Notes under the pieces: model-generated
Seen by the model: only the letters and a program-made list of their open reading frames with translations
Told to the model about the DNA's origin: nothing
Databases searched by the model: none
Program-made: the position numbers and the translations under genes
From: a virus
Taxonomy: Duplodnaviria > Heunggongvirae > Uroviricota > Caudoviricetes
Virus record (IMG/VR): IMGVR_UViG_2541047888_000001
Direction: 5' to 3' (one strand)
DNA length: 20,430 nucleotides
Shown here: one piece after another, positions 4,908-20,430 of the stretch
Position numbering within the stretch: the first letter of the stretch is position 1
How the letters are laid out: each line of letters begins with the position of its first letter

Positions 4908-5968
4908 CCGCCCAGAAGAAGACATTTTCACTGGCTGGTATGTCGCCAAAATCCAGCAATATGACAGCAAAGTCAGGCATTAATACAGCAGATACAAGCA
5001 AAGTTTATCATTTGCTGGTGGTAGGAGCGGATGCCTTAACTATGTCAGAAATTACGGTCGATGGTGTTAGCGTTGAGAAGGTCAGCGGCTGCGCCAGAGA
5101 ATTTCTGGTCGTAGATGGCTTTCTCTGCTCGCGTAGTGACTCCACAAAAACCTTCGTCCACGCGCGTGACGTTAACGAAATGAGCGCGATGTACTGTGCT
5201 TCTGGTTCTTCCAATAGTGAGTTTTCGGAGTCCATAAAAAAGAGCTTGCCGTTATGCGGCAACACGGTTTATGGTTATAAGGCACCTCATAAAACGGGTG
5301 CCGGGATTGGCGTCCTGGTAAATCGAATGGCGACATATGACGCGCCGAGCGTCTTTTTTTATGTCGTAGGTCTGACTCACCCATTTTTTGGGCGTTGGTG
5401 TATAATCCAGCGCCTTTGTCAATCAATGGTGGCTCAGGCAGGGGCTTCTTCGGAAGCGCCGGTATCCATTCGAGCCGGTTACGCCAACCCTGTCTGGGCT
5501 ACCACCAGCGAAATTGGCGTTTCCGGTGGTAGCGTTACATGCTATCGAATGGAGGCTGCCACATGCTGGCTACTACCCCTACCCAAAAACCGCAATTTAT
5601 CTGGATTATCGCCGCAGTTCGCCGCGATTGCCCGACAATTACCGCCAAAATTCATCATATTGCTGCCGAGTCTGAACGCGATGCTCGCCGTTCTCTGGTG
5701 CGCGATCACGTCTGCTTTTTTGCTGGTCGTATCCGCATGGAGGTGGCACATGATTAAAACCTACGATGTGCATATGGATCCCCTCGAACGCACAAGCCAG
5801 ATCATCACACTGACAGAAGTGATTAACGACATTCTGGTGAGCAACTCTCCCTCACGAGACGAAAGACTGAAGGCGTTACTCGCGATATTGGATCTCGCCG
5901 TTCGTGACGTTCATTTCCTGCTGGAAGGTGGCGAAATGCCAGTAAAAACGGGGGAAACCAATGAATAA
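4901..5968 (+). CDS. long ORF of uncertain validity (355 aa frame); N-terminal ~220 codons possibly real, remainder overprinted by the icd-like gene and containing an internal start at 5750
   Basis: GGAGG RBS 8 nt before ATG 4901 and coupling to the upstream gene argue for a real start; the segment overlapping 5563-5757 translates to an implausible peptide in this frame; no in-frame stop until 5968. Confidence 0.3.
5563..5757 (+). CDS. Icd-like (host cell division inhibitor-like) small protein
   Basis: 64 aa from ATG 5563 with GGAGG 7 nt upstream; [24 protein letters not shown]...[22 protein letters not shown] resembles Icd-like proteins of P4-type elements; stop overlaps the next start (ATGA). 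Confidence 0.6.
   Translation: MLATTPTQKPQFIWIIAAVRRDCPTITAKIHHIAAESERDARRSLVRDHVCFFAGRIRMEVAHD
5750..5968 (+). CDS. small hypothetical protein (72 aa)
   Basis: ATG 5750 preceded by GGAGGTGGCAC, nearly the same RBS context as the icd-like gene; coupled to the next ORF. Confidence 0.45.
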   Translation: MIKTYDVHMDPLERTSQIITLTEVINDILVSNSPSRDERLKALLAILDLAVRDVHFLLEGGEMPVKTGETNE

Positions 5969-7580: not shown

Positions 7581-7944
7581 AAATGCAGAAATGGCGCTTA
7601 GCTCCGCAATCGGAGAGCAGGTGGCAAAGATTGCTGGTGCTGTGTGGATTCATAACCTTCATTCTACTGGTGAAGAGAAAATGGCAATTCAGACGCCAGA
7701 GGGACGCACCATTACTACATCTCTGAAGCCGTCAGATGTTTGTGATCTGATTTGCGCATTCATGTACCCAGCAATGAGGACTGTCCACGGCGATAAGTGG
7801 AAACTTGCGACAACCGCTGAATTTGATATGTGGCTAAACAATGATGGCATGCTGACTGATTACGGAATAACCAAGTGGCAGATGCTGGTTAGCCATATCG
7901 CAAACGCTATAGACCACGTGGGGTACGGTGATGCGAAACATTGA
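7573..7944 (+). CDS. hypothetical protein (123 aa)
   Basis: GGGAGG RBS; stop overlaps the primase start. Confidence 0.55.
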   Translation: MRENAEMALSSAIGEQVAKIAGAVWIHNLHSTGEEKMAIQTPEGRTITTSLKPSDVCDLICAFMYPAMRTVHGDKWKLATTAEFDMWLNNDGMLTDYGITKWQMLVSHIANAIDHVGYGDAKH

Positions 7945-10687
7945 TCTTATCCGTCAGGTTATCAGTGCGTCTGAAAACAACTGGCCTCATGTGCTGGGCT
8001 GCCTGAACATAAATGTCCCTGACTCTCCGCGCCGTCATGCTCCCTGCCCTGCATGTGGGGGCAAAGATCGATTCCGGTTCGATGACAACGGGCGCGGTAG
8101 CTTCATCTGTAATCAGTGCGGCGCTGGTGATGGGCTGGATTTAATTAAACGCGTAAATAACTGCGACACAACAGAGGCGGCGCTTCTTGCCGCTGATGTT
8201 CTGGGTATTGATTACCGGACAACGGAAACACCAGAAGCCACCAGCCAGAAACGGGAACAACTGGAAACCGAGCGCCAGCGACGCGAACAGGAGCGCCTGA
8301 AAAGGGCAGAGAAGGACGAACAACAAAGACGGGATACGTTTTCCCGTCAGTTTGATGACATGCGCAGAAAGGCTGTAAACGGCAAATCTGATTATCTGGT
8401 TGCGAAAGGGGTAGGTGATTTTACATTCCCCGTGTTGCCCGATGGATCTCTGTTGCTGGCGCTGGTGGATAAATCCGGCGCAGTCACAGCAGCACAGACT
8501 ATTACCTCACATGGTGAAAAAAGACTCCTGAGAGGTTCAGCAAAGCGGGGGGCATATCACGCCATAAACGCGCCAGAAACAACACAGAGCATCTTAATTA
8601 CAGAAGGGCTGGCAACGGCATTATCTGCCCATTTAATTCGTCCAGAGGCGCTGACAGTGGCGGCGATTGATGCCGGGAACCTGTTATATGTCGCCCAGGT
8701 ACTGCGGGATAAATTTCCTTCAGCACAAATCATCATTGCTGCGGATAACGACCACAGCGAAGGAAGACAAAACACGGGGAGAATAGCAGCAGAAAAAGCA
8801 GCTTTATCTGTTTCTGGATGGGTGGCATTACCCCAGACAGATCACAAAGCAGACTGGAATGATTACCACCAAAAACACGGCATTAAATGCGCCACAGAAG
8901 CGTTCAATAAGTCAATGTACCAACCACAGGGTAATGGCGTGAAACAGGAGCCACAGACCATTGAGGGAAGCGATTTTAAGGTTATGGATACCGACCCACT
9001 GAAACCAAGAATAGAAAGCCGCGAGGATGGTATTTATTGGGTATCTCCGAGAGCTGACAGCCAGAGTGGAGAAATCATCAATAACGAAAGCTGGTTATGT
9101 TCTCCGTTAAGCGTTATCGGTACTGGCAGAGACGATAAAGACCAGTATCTCATTCTTCGCTGGCTGTCGTTTGGTTCTGAAACGCCGACAACCGCTGCCA
9201 TTCCACTGGCTGATATTGGTGAACGTGAAGGATGGCGCACACTTAAAGCTGGTGGGGTAAATGTCACGACCAAAAGCAGCCTCAGAGCAATACTGGCAGA
9301 CTGGCTACAACGCAGTGGCTCTCGTGAATTGTGGCGTGTTGCTCATGCCACTGGCTGGCAATGCGGAGCGTACATCATGCCTGATGGGGAAATCATCGGA
9401 ACACCTGAAAATCCTGTGCTGTTCAGCGGGAGAAGCTCAGCCGCAGCCGGATATACCGTCTCAGGGAGCGCGAAAAGCTGGCGTGATAACGTGGCGCGTC
9501 TGGCCTTTGGTAACTATTCAATGATGACCGGGATCGGCGCAGCACTGGCAGCGCCATTGATTGGGCTGGTGGGCGCTGACGGGTTCGGCATTCATTTCTA
9601 TGAGCAGTCGAGCGCAGGTAAGACCACCACGGCAAACGTGGCGAGCAGCTTATACGGCAACCCTGATTTACTGCGGCTGACGTGGTACGGAACCGCGCTG
9701 GGGCTGGCAAATGAGGCCGCCGCCCACAATGACGGACTAATGCCGCTTGATGAAGTTGGTCAGGGCGCTGATCCTGTCAGCGTTTCACAGTCTGCCTATG
9801 CGTTATTTAACGGTGTAGGGAAACTGCAAGGCGCTAAAGATGGTGGAAACCGGGATCTAAAACGCTGGCGTACAGTGGCAATCAGCACCGGAGAAATGGA
9901 TTTAGAAACATTTATCGCTACTTCCGGGCGAAAAACCAAAGCCGGGCAACTGGTGCGACTGCTGAATATTCCGTTGAGTAAAGCAGTACGCTTTCACGAT
10001 TACCAGAACGGAAAACAGCACGCAGACGCACTGAAAGACGCTTACCAGCATCACCACGGCGCGTCCGGGCGTGAGTGGATTAAATGGCTGGCAGACCACC
10101 AGCAACAGGCTATTAAAACCGTTCGTGACTGCGAAAGCAGATGGAGAAGCCTGATCCCATCCGATTATGGTGAGCAGGTTCACCGTGTAGCCGCGCGATT
10201 TGCCATTCTGGAGGCCGCATTGTTGTTAGGCGAGGTTGTAACAGGCTGGGATGCTCAGACATGCCGTGATGCGATACAGCACAGCTATAACGCATGGTTG
10301 CGCGAGTTCGGCACAGGTAACAAAGAGCATCAGCAGATTATTGAACAAACGGAGGCATTTCTTAATGCCTATGGGCTTAGCCGTTTTGCACCATTTCCAT
10401 ACAGCCCGGCAGATTTGCCCATCAAAGATTTAGCCGGATACCGTCAGCGTGGAGAACATGACGAAAGCCCAATGATTTTCTACACATTCCCGGCCACATT
10501 TGAAAAGGAGATCGCATGTGGTTTCAACGCAAAACAGTTTGCTGAAGTGTTGAAAAAAGCCGGGATGCTAACCCCACCAAACAGCGGTCGTGGATACCAA
10601 AGAAAATCACCACGTATTCAGGGACGACAAATAAACGTTTATGTACTCAATTACCAGCCAGGAGATTATAACTCATCTGAAGAATGA
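7931..10687 (+). CDS. P4 alpha-like DNA primase/helicase (N-terminal Cys4 zinc ribbon, Toprim domain, C-terminal P-loop NTPase)
   Basis: ~918 aa; CPACGG...CNQCG zinc ribbon (about nt 8045-8120); Toprim signatures ILITEGLATA and AADNDHSEG; P-loop-like YEQSSAGKTT; start could be GTG 7928 or ATG 7931. Confidence 0.85.
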   Translation: MRNIDLIRQVISASENNWPHVLGCLNINVPDSPRRHAPCPACGGKDRFRFDDNGRGSFICNQCGAGDGLDLIKRVNNCDTTEAALLAADVLGIDYRTTETPEATSQKREQLETERQRREQERLKRAEKDEQQRRDTFSRQFDDMRRKAVNGKSDYLVAKGVGDFTFPVLPDGSLLLALVDKSGAVTAAQTITSHGEKRLLRGSAKRGAYHAINAPETTQSILITEGLATALSAHLIRPEALTVAAIDAGNLLYVAQVLRDKFPSAQIIIAADNDHSEGRQNTGRIAAEKAALSVSGWVALPQTDHKADWNDYHQKHGIKCATEAFNKSMYQPQGNGVKQEPQTIEGSDFKVMDTDPLKPRIESREDGIYWVSPRADSQSGEIINNESWLCSPLSVIGTGRDDKDQYLILRWLSFGSETPTTAAIPLADIGEREGWRTLKAGGVNVTTKSSLRAILADWLQRSGSRELWRVAHATGWQCGAYIMPDGEIIGTPENPVLFSGRSSAAAGYTVSGSAKSWRDNVARLAFGNYSMMTGIGAALAAPLIGLVGADGFGIHFYEQSSAGKTTTANVASSLYGNPDLLRLTWYGTALGLANEAAAHNDGLMPLDEVGQGADPVSVSQSAYALFNGVGKLQGAKDGGNRDLKRWRTVAISTGEMDLETFIATSGRKTKAGQLVRLLNIPLSKAVRFHDYQNGKQHADALKDAYQHHHGASGREWIKWLADHQQQAIKTVRDCESRWRSLIPSDYGEQVHRVAARFAILEAALLLGEVVTGWDAQTCRDAIQHSYNAWLREFGTGNKEHQQIIEQTEAFLNAYGLSRFAPFPYSPADLPIKDLAGYRQRGEHDESPMIFYTFPATFEKEIACGFNAKQFAEVLKKAGMLTPPNSGRGYQRKSPRIQGRQINVYVLNYQPGDYNSSEE

Positions 10688-10712: not shown

Positions 10713-10823
10713 GTTGGTTCAGTTGGTTCAGTTGGTTCAATTTGTAAAGAGTATTGTTTTATAAGGATTTTATTCTTTTTATTGAACCAACACTGAACCA
10801 ACAACACGGTATTTTGAACCAAC
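10713..10823. repeat. Iteron-like array A: 3 tandem GTTGGTTCA, AT-rich spacer, 3 inverted TGAACCAAC
   Basis: Perfect 9-mers at 10713-10721, 10722-10730, 10731-10739 and inverted copies at 10783-10791, 10794-10802, 10815-10823, separated by ~43 bp of AT-rich DNA; directly downstream of the primase gene. Confidence 0.7.
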
Positions 10824-10875
10824 ACAATGTGACTGAATTGATGCGCACAACACCTGGCTGGCATCAGAGAGTGTT

Positions 10876-10949
10876 TTACGAGACTTTCGTAAAATCCTGT
10901 GTACAAGGGCGTGACGTTTTTGAAAGTGAGCACTACGAAATTTTCGTAG
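10876..10949. promoter_or_regulatory. Two palindromic operator-like sites TACGA-N5-TCGTA
   Basis: TTACGAGACTTTCGTAA (10876-10892) and CTACGAAATTTTCGTAG (10933-10949); identical half-sites and spacing, ~57 bp apart. Confidence 0.4.
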
Positions 10950-11143
10950 TTCAGAAAACAGCCTCTGAGAAGTTGTTATGCCTGTTCAGCAAACCATCCG
11001 CATAGCTGATCGCGAATCAAATTACCAATGGAGCCAGAAGCAAGGGCAGAACTGAAAAGCGCCTGCCGTGAAGAGTAATGCGACACCATAAATATAGTTT
11101 TTAGAGTCCATAAAAAACCTGTCAAAACCTGACACACAGAACG

Positions 11144-11177
11144 ATGCCACCAGCTACTGAGCGGTGGCATTTTTTTG
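11144..11177 (+). terminator. Rho-independent terminator-like hairpin
   Basis: ATGCCACC-(11 nt loop)-GGTGGCAT followed by a T run (TTTTTT at 11171-11176). Confidence 0.6.
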
Positions 11178-11271
11178 TGCTATTTGTTTCATATTTTGCA
11201 ATTACGATGATGAATATTGCGATTTGTGAAACTATAATAACTGTTGTTTTATACAGTTCTAAGGGGGCGTT

Positions 11272-11433
11272 ATGGCTATTTCAGTAAAGCCGGTATTGAT
11301 AAGTGAGAAGCAAATGGAAGCGATAAAGAAAATTCAGGAAGAGCAGCGTAAAAAATCAGGAATTGGAGTAGCGCCAACTCTGCATGAAATTGCACGAGGG
11401 TTAATAGATAAGGCGCTGGCAGGCTGTATGTGA
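11272..11433 (+). CDS. small protein (53 aa), possible ribbon-helix-helix DNA-binding protein; not in the supplied ORF track (<60 aa)
   Basis: ATG 11272 preceded by AAGGGGG; TATAAT at 11233-11238 upstream; sequence MAISVKPVLISEKQMEAIKKIQEEQRKKSGIGVAPTLHEIARGLIDKALAGCM has a beta-strand plus two helices pattern; first gene of the downstream operon. Confidence 0.45.
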   Translation: MAISVKPVLISEKQMEAIKKIQEEQRKKSGIGVAPTLHEIARGLIDKALAGCM

Positions 11434-11449
11434 AAATGGATGGCATCGC

Positions 11450-11911
11450 ATGGAACTAAAATTTATTGATAACCCTGTGCGATTACAGGCCTTTCTTAAC
11501 GAGCCAGGCAATACCGAAAATATTGTTGAGCCGGGGCACACGTACTACATCAAGCCTGATGCGGTATATCTCGGCATCTACGAAGGATTAGTGCTGGCTG
11601 GCGTTCATGAAGTGCGTAACTTCTGGCATAGCGTTGTTGAATGCCATGCGGTGTACGACCCCGGATTCCGTGGTGAATATGCACTGCAAGGACATCGATT
11701 ATTCTGCAAATGGCTTCTCGAAAACTCACCATTCCTTAACAGCATCACTATGGTTCCTGACACCACGAAATACGGACGGGCAATTATCCGTTTGCTTGGC
11801 GCTACCCGTGTTGGTCACCTTGATGATGCTTATATCAGATGTGGTAAACCCGTCGGCGTAACGCTTTATCAGTTAACTCGGCAACAATATAAGGAATTCA
11901 GCGAATGTTAA
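11450..11911 (+). CDS. hypothetical protein (153 aa)
   Basis: ORF with GGATGG upstream; stop overlaps the start of the next gene (ATGTTAA); no family recognised. Confidence 0.65.
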   Translation: MELKFIDNPVRLQAFLNEPGNTENIVEPGHTYYIKPDAVYLGIYEGLVLAGVHEVRNFWHSVVECHAVYDPGFRGEYALQGHRLFCKWLLENSPFLNSITMVPDTTKYGRAIIRLLGATRVGHLDDAYIRCGKPVGVTLYQLTRQQYKEFSEC

Positions 11912-12582
11912 TTACCCATATAGCTCATAAACATCTCAATCGTGCCGTATACGAAAAAGGCGGTGATGGTGGTGCCTCTAAAGCTCAGGCGAAGGCCCAG
12001 CAGCAGGCAATTGATTTGCAGCGCGAGCAGTGGAATACGGTGATGAATAATCTCAAGCCGTATGCAGAAGTCGGATTGCCTGCTTTACAACAACTACAAG
12101 GACTGATGACTCTGGAAGGGCAGAATAAAGCCGCGAATGATTTCTTTGGTTCTGGTTTATATAAAACACAGGCAGATCAGGCCCGTTATCAGAACCTTGT
12201 CTCAGCAGAAGCTACCGGGGGGCTTGGCTCAACAGCTACCAGTAACCAGTTATCTTCCATTGCGCCCATGCTTTATAACAATTGGCTTAGTGGGCAAATG
12301 CAAAATTATGGAAACCTGCTAAATGTCGGGATGAATGCGGCATCAGGGCAGGCAACGGCAGGGCAAAACTACGCCAATAATACCGGACAACTCTTGCAGG
12401 GGCTTGGCGCTATTCGTGCAGGTCAGGCGCAGCAGCCATCCAGTCTTGCGCGTGGTATTGGTGGGGCAGCATCAGGCGCTTTAGCGGGTGCGCAACTTGG
12501 TTCCGTTGTTCCTGGAATAGGAACTGCGGCCGGCGCTATTGGTGGTGGGCTTATTGGTCTTGTTGGGGGGCTTGGATTCTAA
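11905..12582 (+). CDS. low-complexity Gln/Ala/Gly-rich protein (225 aa) with C-terminal glycine-zipper hydrophobic segment; possible phage ejection-protein-like (size comparable to P22 gp7)
   Basis: Translationally coupled at both ends; C-terminus GAASGALAGAQLGSVVPGIGTAAGAIGGGLIGLVGGLGF; the ejection-protein link is an inference from size, order and composition only. Confidence 0.7.
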   Translation: MLITHIAHKHLNRAVYEKGGDGGASKAQAKAQQQAIDLQREQWNTVMNNLKPYAEVGLPALQQLQGLMTLEGQNKAANDFFGSGLYKTQADQARYQNLVSAEATGGLGSTATSNQLSSIAPMLYNNWLSGQMQNYGNLLNVGMNAASGQATAGQNYANNTGQLLQGLGAIRAGQAQQPSSLARGIGGAASGALAGAQLGSVVPGIGTAAGAIGGGLIGLVGGLGF

Positions 12583-14003
12583 TGGCGACATGGCAACTTG
12601 GCGGGCTGCCTAGCATGGCACCGCAAAATGATAATGCTCCTCGTTCTTCCGTTCCTCAGCCTGTGCAGTATCAGCAGCAGCCAAACGTAGGTTTAATGGC
12701 GCTACAGGGGCTAAGAGGCGTTGCTGAGATTAATCAGCAGGCACGTCAACAACAGCGTAAAGCAGAGTTTCAGAAAGCATATGCCGGGGCTTTTGAGTCT
12801 GGAGACAGAAACAAAATGCGCAGTCTTATTTCTGAGTATCCAGAAGAATTTGAAAGCGTTCAGAAAGGGATGGGCTTTATTGATGACGACCAGAGAAATT
12901 CTATTGGTCATCTTGCGACTAGTGCTCAAATCGCATCTTCGCTCGGAACTGGGGCATTTGGAAAATTCATAGCAGATAACGAAGATGAAATGCGTCGCTT
13001 GGGAATTTCTCCTGAGTCTGTTGCCGAAATGCATGTTAATGATCCACAGGGGTTCCAGCGGCTTGCTGGTAGTATGGCACTGTTTTCTCTCGGTCATGAG
13101 AAGTATTTCGATATCAAAGATCAAATGGAAGGTCGGGATATTGAGCGTGGCAAGTTGGCAGAAACAATCCGCAGCAATCAGGCTGGCGAAGCACTTCAGG
13201 CGAGAGGGCAGGATATTAGCCGAGCAAATGCGTTAACGTCAGCATATGCACCAACAGCAGCAATGCAGAATTACAATCAGTACGCTCAAATGTTAAAGGC
13301 GGATCCAGAGGGGGCGGCGGCATTTGCGGCAGCGGCTGGAATTAATACAAACGCCAAAAAATTAATGAGTGTTAGAGAAAACGATGATGGCACTGTCACA
13401 AAATACTACACAGACGGAAGTGAAGAGCAGGGAAAACTAAACCAGCCAATATCTGGAGATGGGTTTCGTCCAATAGCTTTGCCAACAGCCCAAAAGATCA
13501 TGGAAAAGTCGCCAGAAGGGGCTAAAAAAGCTGCTGGATTTGCATACAGGGTTAGGGATGCTCTTGATTCAATAGATACACTGAAAGACCAGCTTAGCCC
13601 ACAGCGAGTGGCGATCATTAATAATGCTTTGGGTAATGGGACGCTGGCTAACTTAACGCTCAGCCCAACAGAACAGCAATACGTTGTTAATGCTAATGAC
13701 GCAATAATGGCAATACTCCGTCAGGAAACAGGGGCAGCCATCGTACCTGCTGAAATGTCAAAATATTATCAAATGTATTTCCCTCAGCCTGGCGACTCCA
13801 CAAAAACCATTGATACCAAGCGCCGGAAGATGGAAAACCAGTTCAATTCGCTGAAAGCTGCTTCTGGTCGAGCTTATGATGCTTTGCGGGTTATTTCAGC
13901 AGTTGACAGAGGAACTTCTTCTTCGTCGCAGACATTGCCGCAATCTGAGCAGGTATCACAGCCAGCAGCCAGCAGTAACTTTTCTTCACTATGGGGTGAT
14001 TAA
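12582..14003 (+). CDS. hydrophilic Gln/Ala-rich protein (473 aa); possible ejection-protein-like (size comparable to P22 gp20)
   Basis: TAATG coupling at both ends; long ORF with protein-like composition; no catalytic motif recognised. Confidence 0.75.
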   Translation: MATWQLGGLPSMAPQNDNAPRSSVPQPVQYQQQPNVGLMALQGLRGVAEINQQARQQQRKAEFQKAYAGAFESGDRNKMRSLISEYPEEFESVQKGMGFIDDDQRNSIGHLATSAQIASSLGTGAFGKFIADNEDEMRRLGISPESVAEMHVNDPQGFQRLAGSMALFSLGHEKYFDIKDQMEGRDIERGKLAETIRSNQAGEALQARGQDISRANALTSAYAPTAAMQNYNQYAQMLKADPEGAAAFAAAAGINTNAKKLMSVRENDDGTVTKYYTDGSEEQGKLNQPISGDGFRPIALPTAQKIMEKSPEGAKKAAGFAYRVRDALDSIDTLKDQLSPQRVAIINNALGNGTLANLTLSPTEQQYVVNANDAIMAILRQETGAAIVPAEMSKYYQMYFPQPGDSTKTIDTKRRKMENQFNSLKAASGRAYDALRVISAVDRGTSSSSQTLPQSEQVSQPAASSNFSSLWGD

Positions 14004-16108
14004 TGGCTAAAGCATGGAAAGATGTTATCGCCTCTCCACAGTATCAGGCGTTAGCACCAGAACAAAAAGCGCAGGCTCAGGAGCAATACTTCAATGAAGT
14101 CGTGGCCTCGCAAGCCGGAGAAAGTGTAGAGCAGGCTAAGCAGGCTTTTTATGCTGCCTATCCACTACCATCAACGAATGAAATAGACCGATCCCAATCA
14201 GCAACTCAAAATATTCAACATACATCATCTGATAATTCTCTTGCGTCAGGGTATGCAAAGTTAGCTACTCAGCAAAGAGAGGGGCTTGAGCGTTCAGCAG
14301 AACAGGGAGCCAGTCTTGGGGCTGCGATGCGCGATGCTATAACAGGCGAAAGCCGAATGACTCCAGAGATGGAGAGACTGCAAAATGTCGACCTTGCCCC
14401 AGAGTTAACCTCACTCAGCATGGATGCTCTAAAAGCTCGATGGTCTCAACTTTTCGGCTCTGACGCATCTCAGGAAAAGATTCTTCAGAGCATGGGAGCG
14501 AAATTAAGGCAGGATGAGAAGGGTAACACTATCGTTTCCCTGCCATCCGGTGATTATGCTCTGAACAAGCCGGGTTTATCGCCGCAAGACGTGGCATCGT
14601 TTCTGGCTAATGCGCTGGCGTTTACACCAGCGGGCAGGGCTGGAACGGTGCTTGGTGCCATAGGAAAATCAGCAGCTACAGATTTAGCACTACAGGGAGC
14701 CACTAGCCTTGCTGGTGGAGAAGATATTGATCCGTTACAAACGGTAATTTCTGCTGGCATTGGTGGTATTGGTAAGGGGCTGGAAAATACAGCGAGTGCG
14801 GTTTCGAGGGCTGTTCGTGGTGATATGTCGCCTGAAGCAAAGGCTGCTGTCGACTTTGCATCGGAAAGAAATCTGCCGTTAATGACCAGTGACATGCTAA
14901 AAGATAAAACCTTTATGCAGAGTCAGGCTCAGACATTAGGCGAAAGAGTTCCTTTTTTTGGAACCGGTAAGAATCGGCTGAATCAACAACAAGCACGAGA
15001 AAATTTAGTCAGAACATTTAGCGATGGTCTGGGTGGCATTTCTGATAAACAGCTTTATGAATCTGCGACTAAAGGGCAACAAAAATTCATTGAGGCAGCA
15101 GGAAAGCGATATAACCGCATAATTGACGCTATGGGGGATACCCCTGTCGATCTCTCAAACACGGTAAAAGCTATCGACAATCAGATTGCCGTGTTAAGCC
15201 GCCCGGGCAAATCTCAGGATAGAGCCGCGGTAAAAGTCTTGCAGCAATTTAAAGACGATATCACCAGCGGACCAAATGACCTGCGTCTGGCGAGGGAAAA
15301 CAGAACCGATCTTCGAAAGCGATTTATGGCGTCATCTGACACTGTTGATAAAGATACGCTCCAGAAAGCCAGCGATATTATCTACAAGGCATATACGGCG
15401 GATATGAAAAAAGCCGTAGCCAAAAATCTTGGAGCAGACGAAGCCATTAATATGGCAAGGGTTGATCGCTCATGGTCTAAATTTAATGACATGATGGGAA
15501 GAACGCGCGTTCAAAAGGCAATAGCCAGCGGCAAGGCCACGCCTGAGGATGTAACAAAACTCGTTTTTAGCCAAAACCCATCAGAACGTTCTCAGCTTTA
15601 CAGGCTTCTGGATGACAATGGTAGGCAAAACGCACGAGCAGCCATAGTTCAGAATGCTGTAGATAAGGCGACTGATCCGTCTGGAAATATCAGTGTTGAG
15701 AAGTTTATTAATGCGTTACACCGGAACAGGAAGCAATCAGCAACTTTCTTTAAAGGCGTACATGGAAAGGAACTGGACGGCGTTATTAAATACCTCAACG
15801 ATACAAGACACGCGGCAAAAGCGAACGTTCAAAACTTAAATGGTCAGCAGCTTTATGGTTTGTTAGTTGGTGGTGGCATCATAAACGCAGCAGTATTAGC
15901 GGGGATGCTAAAAACGGCTGCGTTTGTTGTTCCTGCTGCTGGTGCCGTAGGCGGAGCAGCGAAGGCATACGAAAGCCCTGTTATACGAAATGCCTTGTTA
16001 CGTCTGGCAAATACGCCAAAAGGTAGCACAGCATATGACAGAGCGATCAGTACGGTCACACAATCGCTCACCAGAGTCGCACAGGCATCACAAAAAGAAG
16101 CTCAATAA
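14003..16108 (+). CDS. large Gln/Ala-rich protein (701 aa) with C-terminal hydrophobic Gly/Ala segment; possible ejection-protein-like (comparable to P22 gp16)
   Basis: TAATG-coupled to the upstream gene; C-terminal LYGLLVGGGIINAAVLAGMLKTAAFVVPAAGAVGGAAKAY putative membrane-interacting segment. Confidence 0.75.
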   Translation: MAKAWKDVIASPQYQALAPEQKAQAQEQYFNEVVASQAGESVEQAKQAFYAAYPLPSTNEIDRSQSATQNIQHTSSDNSLASGYAKLATQQREGLERSAEQGASLGAAMRDAITGESRMTPEMERLQNVDLAPELTSLSMDALKARWSQLFGSDASQEKILQSMGAKLRQDEKGNTIVSLPSGDYALNKPGLSPQDVASFLANALAFTPAGRAGTVLGAIGKSAATDLALQGATSLAGGEDIDPLQTVISAGIGGIGKGLENTASAVSRAVRGDMSPEAKAAVDFASERNLPLMTSDMLKDKTFMQSQAQTLGERVPFFGTGKNRLNQQQARENLVRTFSDGLGGISDKQLYESATKGQQKFIEAAGKRYNRIIDAMGDTPVDLSNTVKAIDNQIAVLSRPGKSQDRAAVKVLQQFKDDITSGPNDLRLARENRTDLRKRFMASSDTVDKDTLQKASDIIYKAYTADMKKAVAKNLGADEAINMARVDRSWSKFNDMMGRTRVQKAIASGKATPEDVTKLVFSQNPSERSQLYRLLDDNGRQNARAAIVQNAVDKATDPSGNISVEKFINALHRNRKQSATFFKGVHGKELDGVIKYLNDTRHAAKANVQNLNGQQLYGLLVGGGIINAAVLAGMLKTAAFVVPAAGAVGGAAKAYESPVIRNALLRLANTPKGSTAYDRAISTVTQSLTRVAQASQKEAQ

Positions 16109-16127
16109 CTGGTTAGCCATGGATGGC

Positions 16128-16742
16128 TTAGATATCTCTGCTGTCTCCATTAGGAAATAAAAGATAATATGGATTTGCCTTTCTTGCTCTCCTTGCTTCA
16201 CCTGGATACCTGTTAGTCAGTAGCTTGCATAATGAGCAGAGAACAACACTCAAGAAAATTCCGAATGAGAAGATCAATATCTCACCAAAAATCAATGGCG
16301 ATATTAAATTTTCAGGATTTAATGATAAGTCAATGTTAAAAACATATTGAGCAATACCAGTAAGTATCAATAATATAATCCCTATGGAATACATTGCTGT
16401 TTCCCAAACATCAGACAGTCTATTTTTGAATTGTTCGCTGGAGTAGTAGTTTGTTATAAAGTCAGAAAAATCACTCTCATATGCATCATCTTTAGGTGAT
16501 GTTAGAAATCCTCTGTCTCTCCATACCTTCTCCCAATTAGTCGATTCTTTTTTTAAGGAAAAATAAATATGTATTGCCAAAAGGATAGCCAAAATTGGTG
16601 TTAGCTCTAAAAAATAGAATGTTATGGAATAAATAATACTGCCATGTTCAAACTCATCTGGGACTATCATGTATGCACAAAAATAAATTGAAAAGTACAC
16701 CATGCAGATAGTTAGCAATTCTTTAGTATCTTTTCTGCTCAC
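16128..16742 (-). CDS. AT-rich integral membrane protein (204 aa, ~4 predicted TM helices), unknown function
   Basis: GTG start preceded by AAGGGGG on the minus strand; four hydrophobic stretches (e.g. LLTICMVYFSIYFCAYMIV, IIYSITFYFLELTPILAILLAIHIYF); markedly lower GC than flanking genes; convergent with the 701 aa gene. Confidence 0.7.
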   Translation of the reverse strand: MSRKDTKELLTICMVYFSIYFCAYMIVPDEFEHGSIIYSITFYFLELTPILAILLAIHIYFSLKKESTNWEKVWRDRGFLTSPKDDAYESDFSDFITNYYSSEQFKNRLSDVWETAMYSIGIILLILTGIAQYVFNIDLSLNPENLISPLIFGEILIFSFGIFLSVVLCSLCKLLTNRYPGEARRARKANPYYLLFPNGDSRDI

Positions 16743-16932
16743 ACCAACCCCCTTTAGCGTTGTTTAGAATGGCAATCATCATATATCCAAGACATGGCAT
16801 TTGGTACATAGCTTGGGTCGGGATTTCAAATCCGCCCCCGTTGATGGGGTCGTTACAGTACGCGCATATCCGCTTTATGTGAAACAGGAAGATTTTTCTG
16901 ATATCACTGCCACAGCAAAACACCAATTTCGA

Positions 16933-17232
16933 GACAAGTACGCGCGCGAGGGGTATCAGTTGCAAAATTTTTTGCAGCTGCGTCCGACCAGTACGCACAC
17001 GATGGCGGGGAGCAGCATAAAACTGTTCTCTACATAGACAGAGTGGTGGTGATGTGTTGATTATCGGCGTATATGCGCACAGGACGCGCTATGACGATGT
17101 TTTATGCGGGTACACCAATCACATGTATCTGATGTGATAAATCGTGTTACATGACATCTCATGTTGTGCTGGTGGTTATCACGACGTTCTGAATCTGGCC
17201 TTTGCCTGATATTTTGCGACAAGTACGCGCGC
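16933..17232. repeat. 16 bp direct repeat GACAAGTACGCGCGCG (two copies) within the long non-coding region
   Basis: Copies at 16933-16948 and 17217-17232; palindrome TGCAAAATTTTTTGCA at 16962-16977 lies between them. Confidence 0.4.
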
Positions 17233-17383
17233 GTAGCATCGAAATTATCGGATGGCGTATGCTGCTGGCAATATGAAGACCGATAGTATTAACCGAAAAG
17301 CGATTAAGGAGTGCCAACTTTTCAGTAGAGAAACTAGCCAGCACAGGGAAATGTAGAAATTACCCAATTAATAGGTAAAAGTT

Positions 17384-17500
17384 ATTGACACACCCTGTAG
17401 TGGATAACGATATGAATAAAAACCACATATAGTGGTTTTTCGTTAGTGATGATAGTATCTATGTTAGTTTCCTAAGTAACTGTGCATTGACATGTGGATA
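17384..17500. promoter_or_regulatory. Duplicated TTGACA + DnaA-box-like (TGTGGATAA / AGTGGATAA) elements flanking a hairpin, upstream of the Abi gene
   Basis: TTGACA 17384-17389 with AGTGGATAA 17398-17406; TTGACA 17486-17491 with TGTGGATAA 17492-17500 (reverse complement of the DnaA box TTATCCACA); hairpin AAAAACCAC-ATATA-GTGGTTTTT at 17417-17439. Confidence 0.35.
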
Positions 17501-17612
17501 ACTTCGGATAGAGTTACAATCAACTGAGCCCGGCCCCCTGGCTTTATCTTGTCTTAGATGAGAAATTGTTATGGCCGGGCCTTCTTGTATCTGGAGGTAG
17601 GAAACCTTTTGT

Positions 17613-18575
17613 ATGGCTGTTCCGGTTAAGGTTCATAAAGAATATGATGAACTTGTCGATTTATTGCTGTCTCGGGGTATGGATGTGCCAGATCGCGAAC
17701 ATGCTATCAAGAAAATCTCACAAGTAGGCTACTACCGATTATCAGGCTTTTGGTACCCCTGCCGAATCCCCCATATAACAACAGACAATATTAGAACCAG
17801 ACTCGATCAGGTTCGTCCAGGTACTAATTTTCGCGCAGTATATGACCTCTATTTATTCGATAAAAATCTGCGTTTGCAGATGATGAATGCGTTAGAACGC
17901 ATTGAGGTTTATGTTCGGTCAGTTATTGCTCATGAGCTTGGTAAGATATCTCCTTTAGCATATCTTGATGACTCGCTAATAAATCCAAAACACTTTAGAC
18001 CACGTTCCCATGGTCGCCCAAGCGCCAGAGAAGAATGGATAAATAAACATAATGCCGAGATTGCTAAAAGTCGCGAAGACTTTATCAAATGGCATGAAAA
18101 CAAGTACGAAGGTCTTCCTTTCTGGGTGGTTATTGAAGTGTGGGACTTCGGCTTAATGTCAAAGTATTATGCGATGCTAAAAGACAGCTATCGCAACAGG
18201 ATACTATCTAGGCTAGGGATAGCGGCAGGCAATGGAGCTATCTTCCAAAACTGGCTTAGCGCAATGAATGTGCTAAGGAATCGGTGCGCTCACCATTCAC
18301 GCATCTGGAACAAGGTCAACGAACCAAGATTAATGCCTTTGCCAAATGAGCCGTACTTTGAACAATTAAATATGAATGATGATGCGTACGAAAGAATGTA
18401 CGGAATGATCGCTGTGTTATGGTTTTTAGTGAAAAAAATTGGACCGGGATCTGACTGGATAAAAAAAGTTGCCAACCTTGTAGATAACAAGCCTAACTTA
18501 CCAGGATGTAACCTGACAGCCATGGGATTACCTGATAATAACGGTTTCCCAAGGCATTTATTTGATATTGAATAA
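17613..18575 (+). CDS. Abi_2 family (AbiD/AbiF-like) abortive-infection protein, predicted HEPN domain
   Basis: 320 aa; GGAGG RBS; family-typical motifs ISQVGYYRLSGFWYP, FDKNLR, PFWVVIEVWDFG and the HEPN Rx4H motif RNRCAHH (about nt 18276-18296). Confidence 0.8.
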   Translation: MAVPVKVHKEYDELVDLLLSRGMDVPDREHAIKKISQVGYYRLSGFWYPCRIPHITTDNIRTRLDQVRPGTNFRAVYDLYLFDKNLRLQMMNALERIEVYVRSVIAHELGKISPLAYLDDSLINPKHFRPRSHGRPSAREEWINKHNAEIAKSREDFIKWHENKYEGLPFWVVIEVWDFGLMSKYYAMLKDSYRNRILSRLGIAAGNGAIFQNWLSAMNVLRNRCAHHSRIWNKVNEPRLMPLPNEPYFEQLNMNDDAYERMYGMIAVLWFLVKKIGPGSDWIKKVANLVDNKPNLPGCNLTAMGLPDNNGFPRHLFDIE

Positions 18576-18576
18576 A

Positions 18577-19032
18577 TTATAGCGATGGCGCTGAATGTAG
18601 CGCCACTGATAACTTTTCAGCATTGCTTCCCTGACGCTTCCACGCGCTATAAATATCTTTATCCCATGCCTTACCAGCTTTTGTTTGATAGCCTGCTTCA
18701 TTGATCCGTTCAGCTATCACGCGCCCATTATCAAATCCCTGTCGGATGGTATCGGCAATGATCTTTATAACTGCCGTTTCGTTATATGGCTTTGGTGGGA
18801 TGTTCGGCTTTCCGGCAATAAGCGACGCAGCGGCTTTTTCCATGCGCTCCACCAGCCCAAGCATTCGTGAATCAATAGACTTTTCCGGCTGTCCCAGCTT
18901 CATGCGAATCGCATCAACAAGCCAGGAGGTTTTATCCCCTCCAGAAGCGAGAACAGACCGATTAAACTCATCCTGCAATTCAGATGGGATGCGGAACGCG
19001 ACCAGATTAGATTTGCTCATTGCAAAGACCAT
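18577..19032 (-). CDS. ribbon-helix-helix domain protein (151 aa), putative transcriptional regulator
   Basis: N-terminus SNLVAFRIPSELQDEFNRSVLASGGDKTSWLVDAIRMKL fits the RHH (CopG/Arc/MetJ) pattern; weak RBS; convergent with and abutting the Abi gene. Confidence 0.6.
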   Translation of the reverse strand: MVFAMSKSNLVAFRIPSELQDEFNRSVLASGGDKTSWLVDAIRMKLGQPEKSIDSRMLGLVERMEKAAASLIAGKPNIPPKPYNETAVIKIIADTIRQGFDNGRVIAERINEAGYQTKAGKAWDKDIYSAWKRQGSNAEKLSVALHSAPSL

Positions 19033-19050
19033 ATCAGTGAGTAATATCCA

Positions 19051-19067
19051 TACAGTATACCACTGTA
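19051..19067. promoter_or_regulatory. Palindromic operator-like site TACAGT-N5-ACTGTA upstream of the minus-strand RHH gene
   Basis: Read directly from the sequence; lies ~20-35 bp upstream of the RHH gene start; followed by a CACTGT(T)ATA direct repeat. Confidence 0.35.
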
Positions 19068-19134
19068 TAACACTGTTATACGCTCAAATATTAGCCAGAA
19101 AATAACGGACCAATCACAAAGCTATCGCTGTGTT

Positions 19135-19255
19135 GTTGGTTCAGAGCTGGGCTGTGTTGGTTCAAAATGAGTTGATGTTGGTTCAATATTTCAGAAAAAA
19201 CACAATAAAAACAACGATCTTTACAAATTGAACCAACTGAACCAACTGAACAAAC
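19135..19255. repeat. Iteron-like array B: 3 spaced GTTGGTTCA, AT-rich spacer, 3 tandem TGAACCAAC (inverted relative to array A)
   Basis: GTTGGTTCA at 19135-19143, 19156-19164, 19177-19185; TGAACCAAC at 19229-19237, 19238-19246 and degenerate TGAACAAAC at 19247-19255; the reverse complement aligns with array A including the spacer start ATTTGTAAAGA. Confidence 0.7.
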
Positions 19256-19291
19256 ACCTTTTTGCTTATCTATATAATCTGAGAGGCAGAA

Positions 19292-19579
19292 ATGATAAGG
19301 GACAGGAAAGCTGAAGAACTGGAGTCAAAAGGGCTATACCGGAGAGCTGCCGCACGATGGGCAGAAGTCATGATGCTGGCAGATGGCGATAAAGAACGTG
19401 AACATGCAGCAAACAGACGCTCTGAATGTATCCGTAAGGCGGCACGCCCACCAGCAACTACAGACAGATTCGGAGATTTAAGACAGGCAGTTAAGCGGAC
19501 TCATTCGGCTCTTGGTATGGATGAGGAAGCGAGAGGGTACTTCAGGCGTTATCGCGATAAAGATTGCCAGAGACAGTAA
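19292..19579 (+). CDS. PerC-family transcriptional regulator-like protein (95 aa)
   Basis: N-terminus MIRDRKAEELESKGLYRRAAARWAEVMM resembles the PerC/Pch family pattern (AE.LE.KGL.RRAA.RW.EVM); GAGAGG RBS. Confidence 0.6.
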   Translation: MIRDRKAEELESKGLYRRAAARWAEVMMLADGDKEREHAANRRSECIRKAARPPATTDRFGDLRQAVKRTHSALGMDEEARGYFRRYRDKDCQRQ

Positions 19580-19920: not shown

Positions 19921-19939
19921 TTCCTATTATCGCACCATT
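19921..19939. other. attR of island 1 / attL of the tandem second island (partial tRNA-Thr 3' end copy)
   Basis: TCCTATTATCGCACCATTC matches tRNA 3' end 1428-1447 with a single G deletion; followed by a sequence homologous to the island-1 int-proximal region. Confidence 0.6.
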
Positions 19940-20091
19940 CTAACGTCTCCCCAAGTCTACTCAAGTATTTAAAAACCTCTTATAATCAGTATATTAATGC
20001 CCCTTTTAGTCTTTTGACGTCTATTTAAGTACCCCAAACTCTACAAGCAATTGAGGGGATTTGCTGTTCAGTTTAGTGGAGATACCCCCAA

Positions 20092-20430
20092 GTGAAACTC
20101 AATGCCCGTCAAATAGACACTGCCAAGCCAAAAGAGAAGGCTTACAAGTTGGCTGATGGTGGTGGTCTGTACCTCCTGGTAAAACCTGGTGGAGGAGAAT
20201 ATTGGCGTCTCAAGTATCGTGTAGCTGGTAAAGAGAAGCTGTTAGCACTAGGTGTGTATCCTGAGGTCACCTTAGCTGATGCTCCTGCAAAACTTGAAGA
20301 AGCTAAAAGAGGTATCTCTGGGGGAATCGATCTGATGGAAGTGAAGCGAGAGGAAAAGATTGCCCGGGAAACGCAGTTAAACAACACCTTCAAAGATATT
20401 GCCCTTGAGTGGCACAGTAACAAATTATAA
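20092..20430 (+). CDS. int: second P4-type integrase, N-terminal portion (GTG start); in-frame TAA at codon 113 at the window edge, possibly disrupted
   Basis: 112 aa, ~92% identical by eye to the island-1 integrase N-terminus; island 1 reads AGC AAA TTA AAA AAA TGG here, island 2 reads AAC AAA TTA TAA. Confidence 0.6.
   Translation: MKLNARQIDTAKPKEKAYKLADGGGLYLLVKPGGGEYWRLKYRVAGKEKLLALGVYPEVTLADAPAKLEEAKRGISGGIDLMEVKREEKIARETQLNNTFKDIALEWHSNKL

Follow-up and report, generated by a model that had tools for sequence, protein, structure and literature searches.

We have analysed a 20,430-nucleotide stretch of DNA (hereafter, the window) that is recorded as a virus of the Caudoviricetes (IMG/VR record IMGVR_UViG_2541047888_000001), and that contains an ~18.5-kb island of Escherichia coli integrated at thrW. 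The island is an EcCIMP1-like phage-inducible chromosomal island (PICI). It contains two arrays of a short repeat, one directly behind the gene of the island replicase, Pri-Rep, and the other 8.3 kb further on, which we interpret as two mirror-image Pri-Rep origin units that are split by cargo genes; we estimate the probability of this interpretation at about 0.6. Its parts do not carry equal weight. Judged from sequence, position and comparison, it is very probable that the arrays are Pri-Rep recognition arrays of the origin type; that the distal array, unit 2, is itself an initiation site is a tentative proposal, to which we give slightly less than an even chance.

Two iteron arrays and the island replicase

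The 9-mer GTTGGTTCA is present in 11 exact copies across the whole window, all of them confined to two arrays of ~115 bp; by simple arithmetic, the chance level for an exact 9-mer on both strands of 20.4 kb is ~0.16 copies. When up to one mismatch was allowed, there were 18 matches, compared with 4.9 ± 2.0 in shuffled sequence, and none of 100 shuffles gave 18. The arrays are real and clearly non-random. Array 1, corresponding to the proximal unit 1 (10713-10823, + strand), starts 26 bp after the stop codon of Pri-Rep and is composed of a tight triple (10713-10739; exact copies at 10713, 10722 and 10731, + strand), an AT-rich spacer (10740-10782) and three inverted exact copies (10783, 10794 and 10815, - strand). 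Array 2, the distal and inverted unit 2 (19135-19255, - strand), as defined by its repeat positions and its alignment to array 1, has three loosely spaced exact copies (19135, 19156 and 19177, + strand), an AT-rich spacer (19186-19228) and a tight triple (19229-19255) whose first two copies are exact (19229 and 19238) and whose third, GTTTGTTCA at 19247, has one mismatch (all - strand). The spacer is exactly 43 bp long in both arrays, with 79-84% A+T, and both tight triples have a 9-bp period, while the offsets of the loose copies are 0/11/32 in array 1 and 0/21/42 in array 2. In EcCIMP1 (L132, 13414-13534), NC101 and NGF1, the proximal unit has the distal-type 0/21/42 spacing by way of a 10-bp duplication (repeated AACACGGTATTTTGAACCAAC), which implies that the two geometries can interconvert.

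Array 1 and the reverse complement of array 2 are ~80% identical over ~130 bp, and the inverted repeat that they form (~120 bp) contains a stretch of ~40 bp with a single mismatch. A preliminary description of the window had proposed that each array has three copies facing three others, that the arrays are mutually inverted, and that they flank all the accessory genes. The mutual inversion is borne out by the alignment. The copy number is correct for array 1 but not for array 2, which has five exact copies and an imperfect one, and the third proposal has to be abandoned because perC is situated beyond array 2, and the primase gene has antA, ash and the C4 RNA to its left.

Pri-Rep (919 aa; 7931-10687, + strand) is a zinc-ribbon/Toprim primase fused to a DUF927 helicase (Pfam Zn_Ribbon_Prim, Toprim_3 and DUF927; PF08273, PF13362 and PF06048), and a homolog is labelled TOPRIM and DUF927 protein in RefSeq. 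A phmmer comparison of residues 403-814 with the PDB returned 8tch, named 'Pathogenicity island protein' (E=1.4e-11), and the helicase 5dgk (E=0.011). To compare loci, we used a sample of 80 IMG/VR loci that were picked by Pri-Rep protein homology (52-99% identity) and that extend ~10 kb to either side. An array follows the Pri-Rep gene in 79 of these 80 loci, 25-57 bp downstream. It is of the GTTGGTTCA type in 73 loci, 27-57 bp past the gene, a number that includes L149 and L165, which use CGTGGTTCA and TCGGTTCA, respectively. The other six loci have an array in the same place that is built of a different repeat: GTTGTCTC (L148), ACGGGTTA (L163, L164 and L197), ACGGGTTCA (L195) or CGTGGTTCA (L201).

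There are at least six iteron sequences, and each of them is paired with a distinct motif in the last ~30 residues of Pri-Rep. The C-terminal motif ...SGRGYQRKSPRIxGRQINVYVL... goes with GTTGGTTCA, even when overall identity is down to 60%, and it is replaced in the loci that use ACGGGTTA, ACGGGTTCA, GTTGTCTC, CGTGGTTCA and TCGGTTCA. In the window, the last ~40 codons (...SGRGYQRKSPRIQGRQINVYVL...), which covary with the iteron sequence in the locus comparison, occupy positions 10565-10684 (+ strand). Over most of the helicase region, the Pri-Rep of L197 is 90-97% identical to that of the window; it nevertheless contains ...SQDRYKRKALKKIGGKQHTFYIL... and is accompanied by the iteron ACGGGTTA. 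A natural domain swap is found in L004, whose replicase is 85% identical to the Pri-Rep of the window over residues 1-345 and then continues with a DUF5906 helicase (the shared zinc ribbon and Toprim part corresponds to window 7931-8965 and L004 22471-24822); the proximal iterons of L004 are GGTACAGG/GGTATAGG, and have thus changed along with the helicase half. Two small genes of this DUF5906 replicon are enclosed by two arrays of the replicon's own iteron, at a distance of ~1 kb from each other. We infer that the C-terminal residues of Pri-Rep are the determinant of iteron recognition, and no other computational evidence that Pri-Rep would read the 9-mers is as strong as the covariation. An AlphaFold2 single-sequence model of the last 139 residues had a pLDDT of 48.5, which is too poor for a fold search.

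Placement and conservation of the second unit

The second unit is inverted relative to the first in every case, and the distance between the two varies widely. In ~30 loci of the 80-locus sample the units are adjacent and form a composite of 250-350 bp. Adjacent units were also found in Erwinia, Rahnella, Pectobacterium, Citrobacter and Apirhabdus in a scan of a genome collection, which was carried out in fixed 8-kb blocks, with array pairs joined from neighbouring blocks of the same contig. Separated units, 4.8-9.7 kb apart, are present in 19 of the 80 loci, a count that includes one locus with the second unit 12.2 kb upstream. Other E. coli islands have their units 2.0-13.8 kb apart, and spacings of 6.8, 14.1 and 15.5 kb were found in Cedecea, Leclercia and Pantoea, respectively. 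The two-unit loci of the Pri-Rep family mostly have a compact inverted double origin of ~260-320 bp; in the E. coli lineage and several others, the units are separated by an accessory module.

Various observations point to constraint on the second unit. A set of 17 distinct distal units, which come from several genera, shows almost no variation in the 9-mers or in the spacer length of 43 bp, while the DNA between the iterons drifts, and the distal geometry (43-bp spacer, 0/21/42) has been kept in Escherichia, Cedecea, Pantoea, Leclercia, Rosenbergiella and Erwinia. Every relative with a variant iteron has a double origin, consisting of a proximal unit and an inverted second unit that are both made of its own iteron. 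Locus L127, with a primase 72% identical to that of the window, has an unrelated cargo and an unrelated right end. Its similarity to the window breaks off precisely where array 1 ends and, in the distal part, is limited to array 2 alone (19134-19262), with unrelated DNA on both sides.

Two further arrangements of the distal unit were also observed. In Pantoea coffeiphila (L044, 4429-7029), the distal unit and a homolog of h151, the cargo gene next to unit 2 in the window, are present in three tandem copies with a period of 1251 bp, the third of which is degraded. A circular record of 12,152 bp that was deposited as a plasmid (L129; NZ_CP148430.1, 1-12152) is one whole island of the same family, which contains perC, int, alpA through pri-rep, unit 1, a truncated gp20, h151 and unit 2, with the units ~1.8 kb apart, and which may be an excised or episomal form of the island.

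Several points weigh against the view that the arrays are two origin units. The 80 sampled loci are not independent lineages, and in ~30 of them a second unit was not seen within the available 10 kb, from which it follows that this unit is not essential to the replicon, and that a strict requirement for it, like that for the cis-required region (crr) of P4, is doubtful. The examples of iteron covariation in both units are all adjacent double origins, and unit 2 of the window has one imperfect copy. Moreover, unit 2 has been kept in ~160 E. coli genomes without a cognate DUF927 Pri-Rep. Some of these orphan units are located beside perC in islands and others in degraded remnants, the intact examples examined have a DUF5906 replicase, and three of the five orphan units examined contain a damaged copy; the orphans fit hitch-hiking or a Pri-Rep-independent role. 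With these points taken into account, unit 2 looks like a functional but dispensable Pri-Rep site. It does not resemble the incA-type handcuffing locus of P1, which has extra iterons without an unwinding element, as unit 2 has an AT-rich spacer of the same length as unit 1, although Pri-Rep may still pair the two units.

If the arrays are indeed two origin units, induction by a helper phage followed by excision would generate an island circle of ~18.5 kb with two Pri-Rep assembly sites, ~8.3 and 10 kb apart. Recognition of the 9-mers would fall to the C-terminal 30-40 residues of Pri-Rep, and the protein would assemble on both sides of each 43-bp spacer, melt the spacer and load itself, with unit 2 either firing, assisting unit 1 through P4-like looping, or restraining the copy number.

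Known origins and alternative explanations

Unit 1 fits the canonical PICI/SaPI-type origin located 3' of pri-rep. The Rep protein of SaPIs binds iterons via a C-terminal winged helix, and the origin, in which opposed iterons are arranged around an AT-rich region, lies directly 3' of rep (PMC9371898). The origins of E. coli PICIs have the same layout as those of SaPIs, and pri-rep plus ori drives plasmid replication; in the case of EcCICFT073, pri-rep with the adjacent ori sufficed for this (PMC6092414). The window resembles the origins of SaPIbov1, SaPI1, SaPI5 and EcCICFT073 in that (i) the unit is located directly 3' of rep or pri-rep, (ii) opposed short iterons flank an AT-rich region, with three copies on each side of the 43 bp in the window units, (iii) the replicase is a self-loading helicase of the SaPI-Rep type, with a fused or adjacent primase (DUF927 plus Toprim in the window), and (iv) the iteron sequence is specific to the Rep allele. 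By every feature tested, unit 1 is, as far as can be read from its sequence, a PICI/SaPI-type origin. The difference is that the island has a second complete unit in inverted orientation, which is adjacent in many relatives and 8.3 kb off here. Unit 2 is not located 3' of pri-rep in the window, being 8.4 kb away, but it is in the relatives with adjacent units.

The kind of element to which the island belongs is already known. Induction and mobilisation of EcCIMP1, the E. coli MP1 PICI, by the P22-like phage Kapi1 have been demonstrated experimentally, in a paper that contains no origin or iteron analysis (PMC11773190). Together with the circular record L129, this mobilisation is circumstantial evidence that islands of this family may replicate autonomously. 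EcCIMP1 and the island in the window share the thrW site and the backbone genes int, alpA, antA, ash, pri-rep and perC, and EcCIMP1 carries both arrays, 8.4 kb apart (the MP1 match to the window is 95.7%). They differ in that EcCIMP1 encodes a 906-aa SLT-type protein and has other genes, whereas the window contains the P22 gp16-type, SieA-like, Abi_2 and h151 genes. No double or split PICI origin is described in the literature searched, which likewise contains no description of the inverted arrangement, of its splitting by cargo or of the iteron/C-terminus code; a literature search for the 9-mer returned unrelated papers only.

The preliminary description had proposed, as one of two alternatives, that the arrays are ori/crr-like sites for the adjacent primase-helicase, on the model of P4. 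According to the P4 record, crr begins 46 bp past the alpha gene and is composed of two 120-bp units, in each of which a spacer of ~35 bp separates tandem iterons (9-bp period) from inverted copies; the iterons recur at ori, 4.7 kb away. P4 and the island have in common that the same iteron is present at two cis sites kilobases apart, one of which is located just 3' of the replicase gene, that the unit is duplicated, and that they encode a P4-type integrase and AlpA/Vis-like regulators. However, the two crr units of P4 are direct repeats and are complemented by a third, separate site, ori, while the units of the island are inverted; the type-1 iteron of P4, TGTTCACC, shares with GTTGGTTCA the core GTTCA alone; the helicase half of alpha is of another family, that of the window being DUF927 and related to SaPI Rep (and DUF5906 at this place in L004); and the second unit is dispensable in many relatives of the island. 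Given the differences in iteron, orientation, third site and helicase, the island is P4-like in outline and not a member of the P4 system. The assignment of the arrays to the primase-helicase finds good support in the position in 79 of 80 loci, the covariation, the helicase swap and the layout, but the enzyme is not P4 alpha, and a strict crr requirement is doubtful.

A P4-style division of labour may still be considered, in which one unit initiates and the other is a cis-required enhancer that is bridged by Pri-Rep, with the DNA between them looped out. The crr/ori layout of P4 is the same as that of the island arrays; in the circle, the units would bracket the arc perC-int-alpA-...-pri-rep, just as ori and crr bracket the alpha operon in P4; and an inter-unit distance ranging from 0 to 15 kb would suit an element that acts independently of distance. 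We nevertheless regard this explanation as unlikely, in view of the ~30 relatives in which a second unit is absent within 10 kb, the complete AT-rich spacer of identical length in both units, which makes neither of them resemble a bare binding site, the SaPI-Rep-related DUF927 helicase, and the observation that pri-rep plus the adjacent ori of EcCICFT073 is enough for plasmid replication (PMC6092414).

A bipartite arrangement is also known from a bacterial chromosome. In Helicobacter pylori, oriC1 and oriC2 flank dnaA, so that two clusters of initiator sites are split by coding DNA, as in the island (PMC3479198). In that published example, the unwinding element is located in one sub-region only, whereas each of the island units has an AT-rich spacer, and DnaA is unrelated to Pri-Rep.

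A more elaborate version of the double origin is unlikely too, and speculative. In that scenario, the inverted double origin would be a two-part device with a helper-matched delivery module inside; Pri-Rep would pair the units and loop out the cargo, thereby coupling initiation to the cargo by local over-replication or by control of flanking promoters; the units would serve as portable homology through which satellites of the same Rep specificity exchange helper-specific cargo by double crossover; and orphan units could allow islands with a non-cognate replicase to replicate in trans with the help of a DUF927 island in the same cell.

It is quite improbable that unit 2 is a passive relic, that is, a duplicated half of an origin that has lost its function and rides along with the right-end module (h151 and perC). 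The orphans in DUF5906 islands and remnants, some of them damaged, the absence of unit 2 from many relatives and the mismatch in the window would be explained in this way. Against this stand the conservation of the 9-mers, the 43-bp spacer and the 0/21/42 spacing across six genera while the DNA between the iterons has drifted, the conservation of unit 2 in L127 amid unrelated DNA and without perC or h151, and the fact that the iteron of unit 2 in adjacent double origins changes with that of unit 1 and with the C-terminus of Pri-Rep.

We consider it very improbable that the arrays are mainly operators through which Pri-Rep or another island protein controls the promoters of perC, h151 and the cargo. 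Both arrays are intergenic; a TATAAT is present between the tight triple of unit 2 and the start codon of perC, which are 36 bp apart; the distance by which unit 2 lies upstream of h151, ~100 bp, is similar in several further genera; and orphan units persist beside perC. However, a consensus scan revealed no sigma-70-like promoter in either array, neither perC nor h151 is next to unit 2 in L127, L125 and L132, a palindrome at 19065-19081 is the likelier operator of h151, and the facing units of composite origins have no gene between them.

The last alternative concerns the cargo. As the preliminary description had anticipated, comparison of related islands shows that the DNA between split units is wholly different between lineages while the arrays are conserved. 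The cargo of other islands includes SLT-type proteins, a single-strand-binding protein, an IS3-family element, toxin-antitoxin genes, a tape measure protein and baseplate-hub-like proteins. The only recurring cargo gene is h53, which has the same orientation as pri-rep in all 18 loci that carry it. A search with a chimeric query for the inverted state detected the inverted junction in 0 of 553 matching E. coli genomes, and the open reading frames of 10.8-19.6 kb encode no invertase, transposase or second recombinase, the integrase (1610-2824) being the only recombinase. Where the units of a relative are adjacent and downstream sequence is available, the cargo is always located outside the pair; among this cargo are capsid, protease and portal genes in Rahnella and, in Apirhabdus, a gene for a Dit-like tail protein. 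The repeats track the replicase and not the cargo. In L125 and L003, one true recombination breakpoint falls within array 2 (window position 19155).

The view that the arrays are the terminal inverted repeats of an invertible or transposable cargo cassette, close to the second suggestion of the preliminary description (an exchangeable or invertible cassette), could appeal to the inverted repeat of ~120 bp with its near-perfect ~40 bp, to the variable cargo and to the breakpoint inside unit 2, but it is extremely improbable and largely refuted at the level of assembled genomes, as the missing inverted junction, the constant orientation of h53, the lack of recombinase genes between 10.8 and 19.3 kb and the ~30 relatives with adjacent units, whose cargo is outside the pair wherever downstream sequence is available, imply that the arrays are not the ends of a mobile or invertible cassette.

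Other genes of the island and implications

The island is inserted at thrW, a tRNA-Thr(CGT) gene (1369-1444, + strand; ARAGORN), whose 3' end forms the attL core (1428-1444, + strand; core TCCTATTATCGGCACCA). The core recurs at 19922-19937 as attR (+ strand; identified by alignment and blastn), which marks the right end of the island. Beyond attR, the region 19922-20430 contains a second attL-like stretch (~85% identity to 1428-1640) and, behind it, the beginning of another integrase gene, which the end of the window cuts short; it looks like a tandem or remnant element. The P4-type tyrosine integrase of the island (1610-2824, + strand; Pfam Arm-DNA-bind_3, Phage_int_M and Phage_integrase) is followed, in this order, by AlpA, an AntA-family protein, an Ash-family protein, Pri-Rep, array 1, the cargo, array 2 and perC. 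Two Rfam matches, isrK (5282-5359) and C4 antisense RNA (5422-5509), fall within the long 'ash' open reading frame; they are located downstream of antA and adjoin a gene that is annotated as Icd-like by RefSeq in relatives. This combination of antA, C4 RNA and an Icd-like gene resembles the c4-icd-ant immunity module of phage P1. The perC-family gene (19292-19579, + strand; Pfam PF06069) lies outside unit 2.

The variable cargo between the units (10824-19134), annotated with Pfam and PHROGs, is preceded by a non-coding stretch from array 1 to h53 (10830-11270) that is conserved, with 93% identity in the DUF5906 island L004, and that contains a hairpin resembling a terminator (11153-11178); a small RNA could be encoded there. 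The first cargo gene, h53 (11272-11433), is followed by P22-like gp14, gp7, gp20 and gp16 genes (11450-16108), a SieA-like gene (16128-16742, - strand), an Abi_2 gene (17613-18575) and h151 (151 aa; 18577-19032, - strand). No family or structure match was found for h151. Its N-terminus looks ribbon-helix-helix-like by eye, and a perfect 17-bp palindrome, GTATAACACTGTTATAC (19065-19081), is located between its start and array 2, which together would suggest self-regulation. H151 was considered as the iteron-binding protein and rejected, as it is not beside unit 2 in L125, L127 and L132, has no family or structure match and is preceded by a palindrome of its own.

Pri-Rep islands without capsid genes of their own carry lineage-specific DNA-delivery or tail-tip proteins. 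These are the P22-like gp14, gp7, gp20 and gp16 and the SieA-like protein in the window (11450-16742), and SLT transglycosylases, a tape measure protein, baseplate-hub gp41-like proteins and a Dit-like protein elsewhere (L170, 15413-18091; L168, 11200-12303; L180, 8399-12410; L173, 15077-18334; L127, 20354-27337; L094, 3126-3680). The helper of EcCIMP1 is a P22-like phage. In E. coli 510016 (L125; 6796-7206 and 25646-26282), an island of the same family is located inside a prophage DNA methyltransferase gene and not at a tRNA gene, a placement that recalls the helper-embedded PICIs of the literature.

In summary, the origins of PICIs and SaPIs have been described as a single iteron-AT-iteron unit located by rep, whereas members of the Pri-Rep family often have two such units, inverted and sometimes kilobases apart, in which case the variable and helper-matched module of the satellite is enclosed by them. 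The arrays are easy landmarks for the putative origin, and in the split lineages they also bound the accessory module of EcCIMP1-like islands, which is blank in current annotation. The pairing of at least six iteron sequences with the last ~30 residues of Pri-Rep provides a candidate recognition code that is directly testable. If unit 2 is active, this would change both our picture of satellite replication and its engineering, with consequences for minimal replicons, for incompatibility and for cross-replication between co-resident islands.

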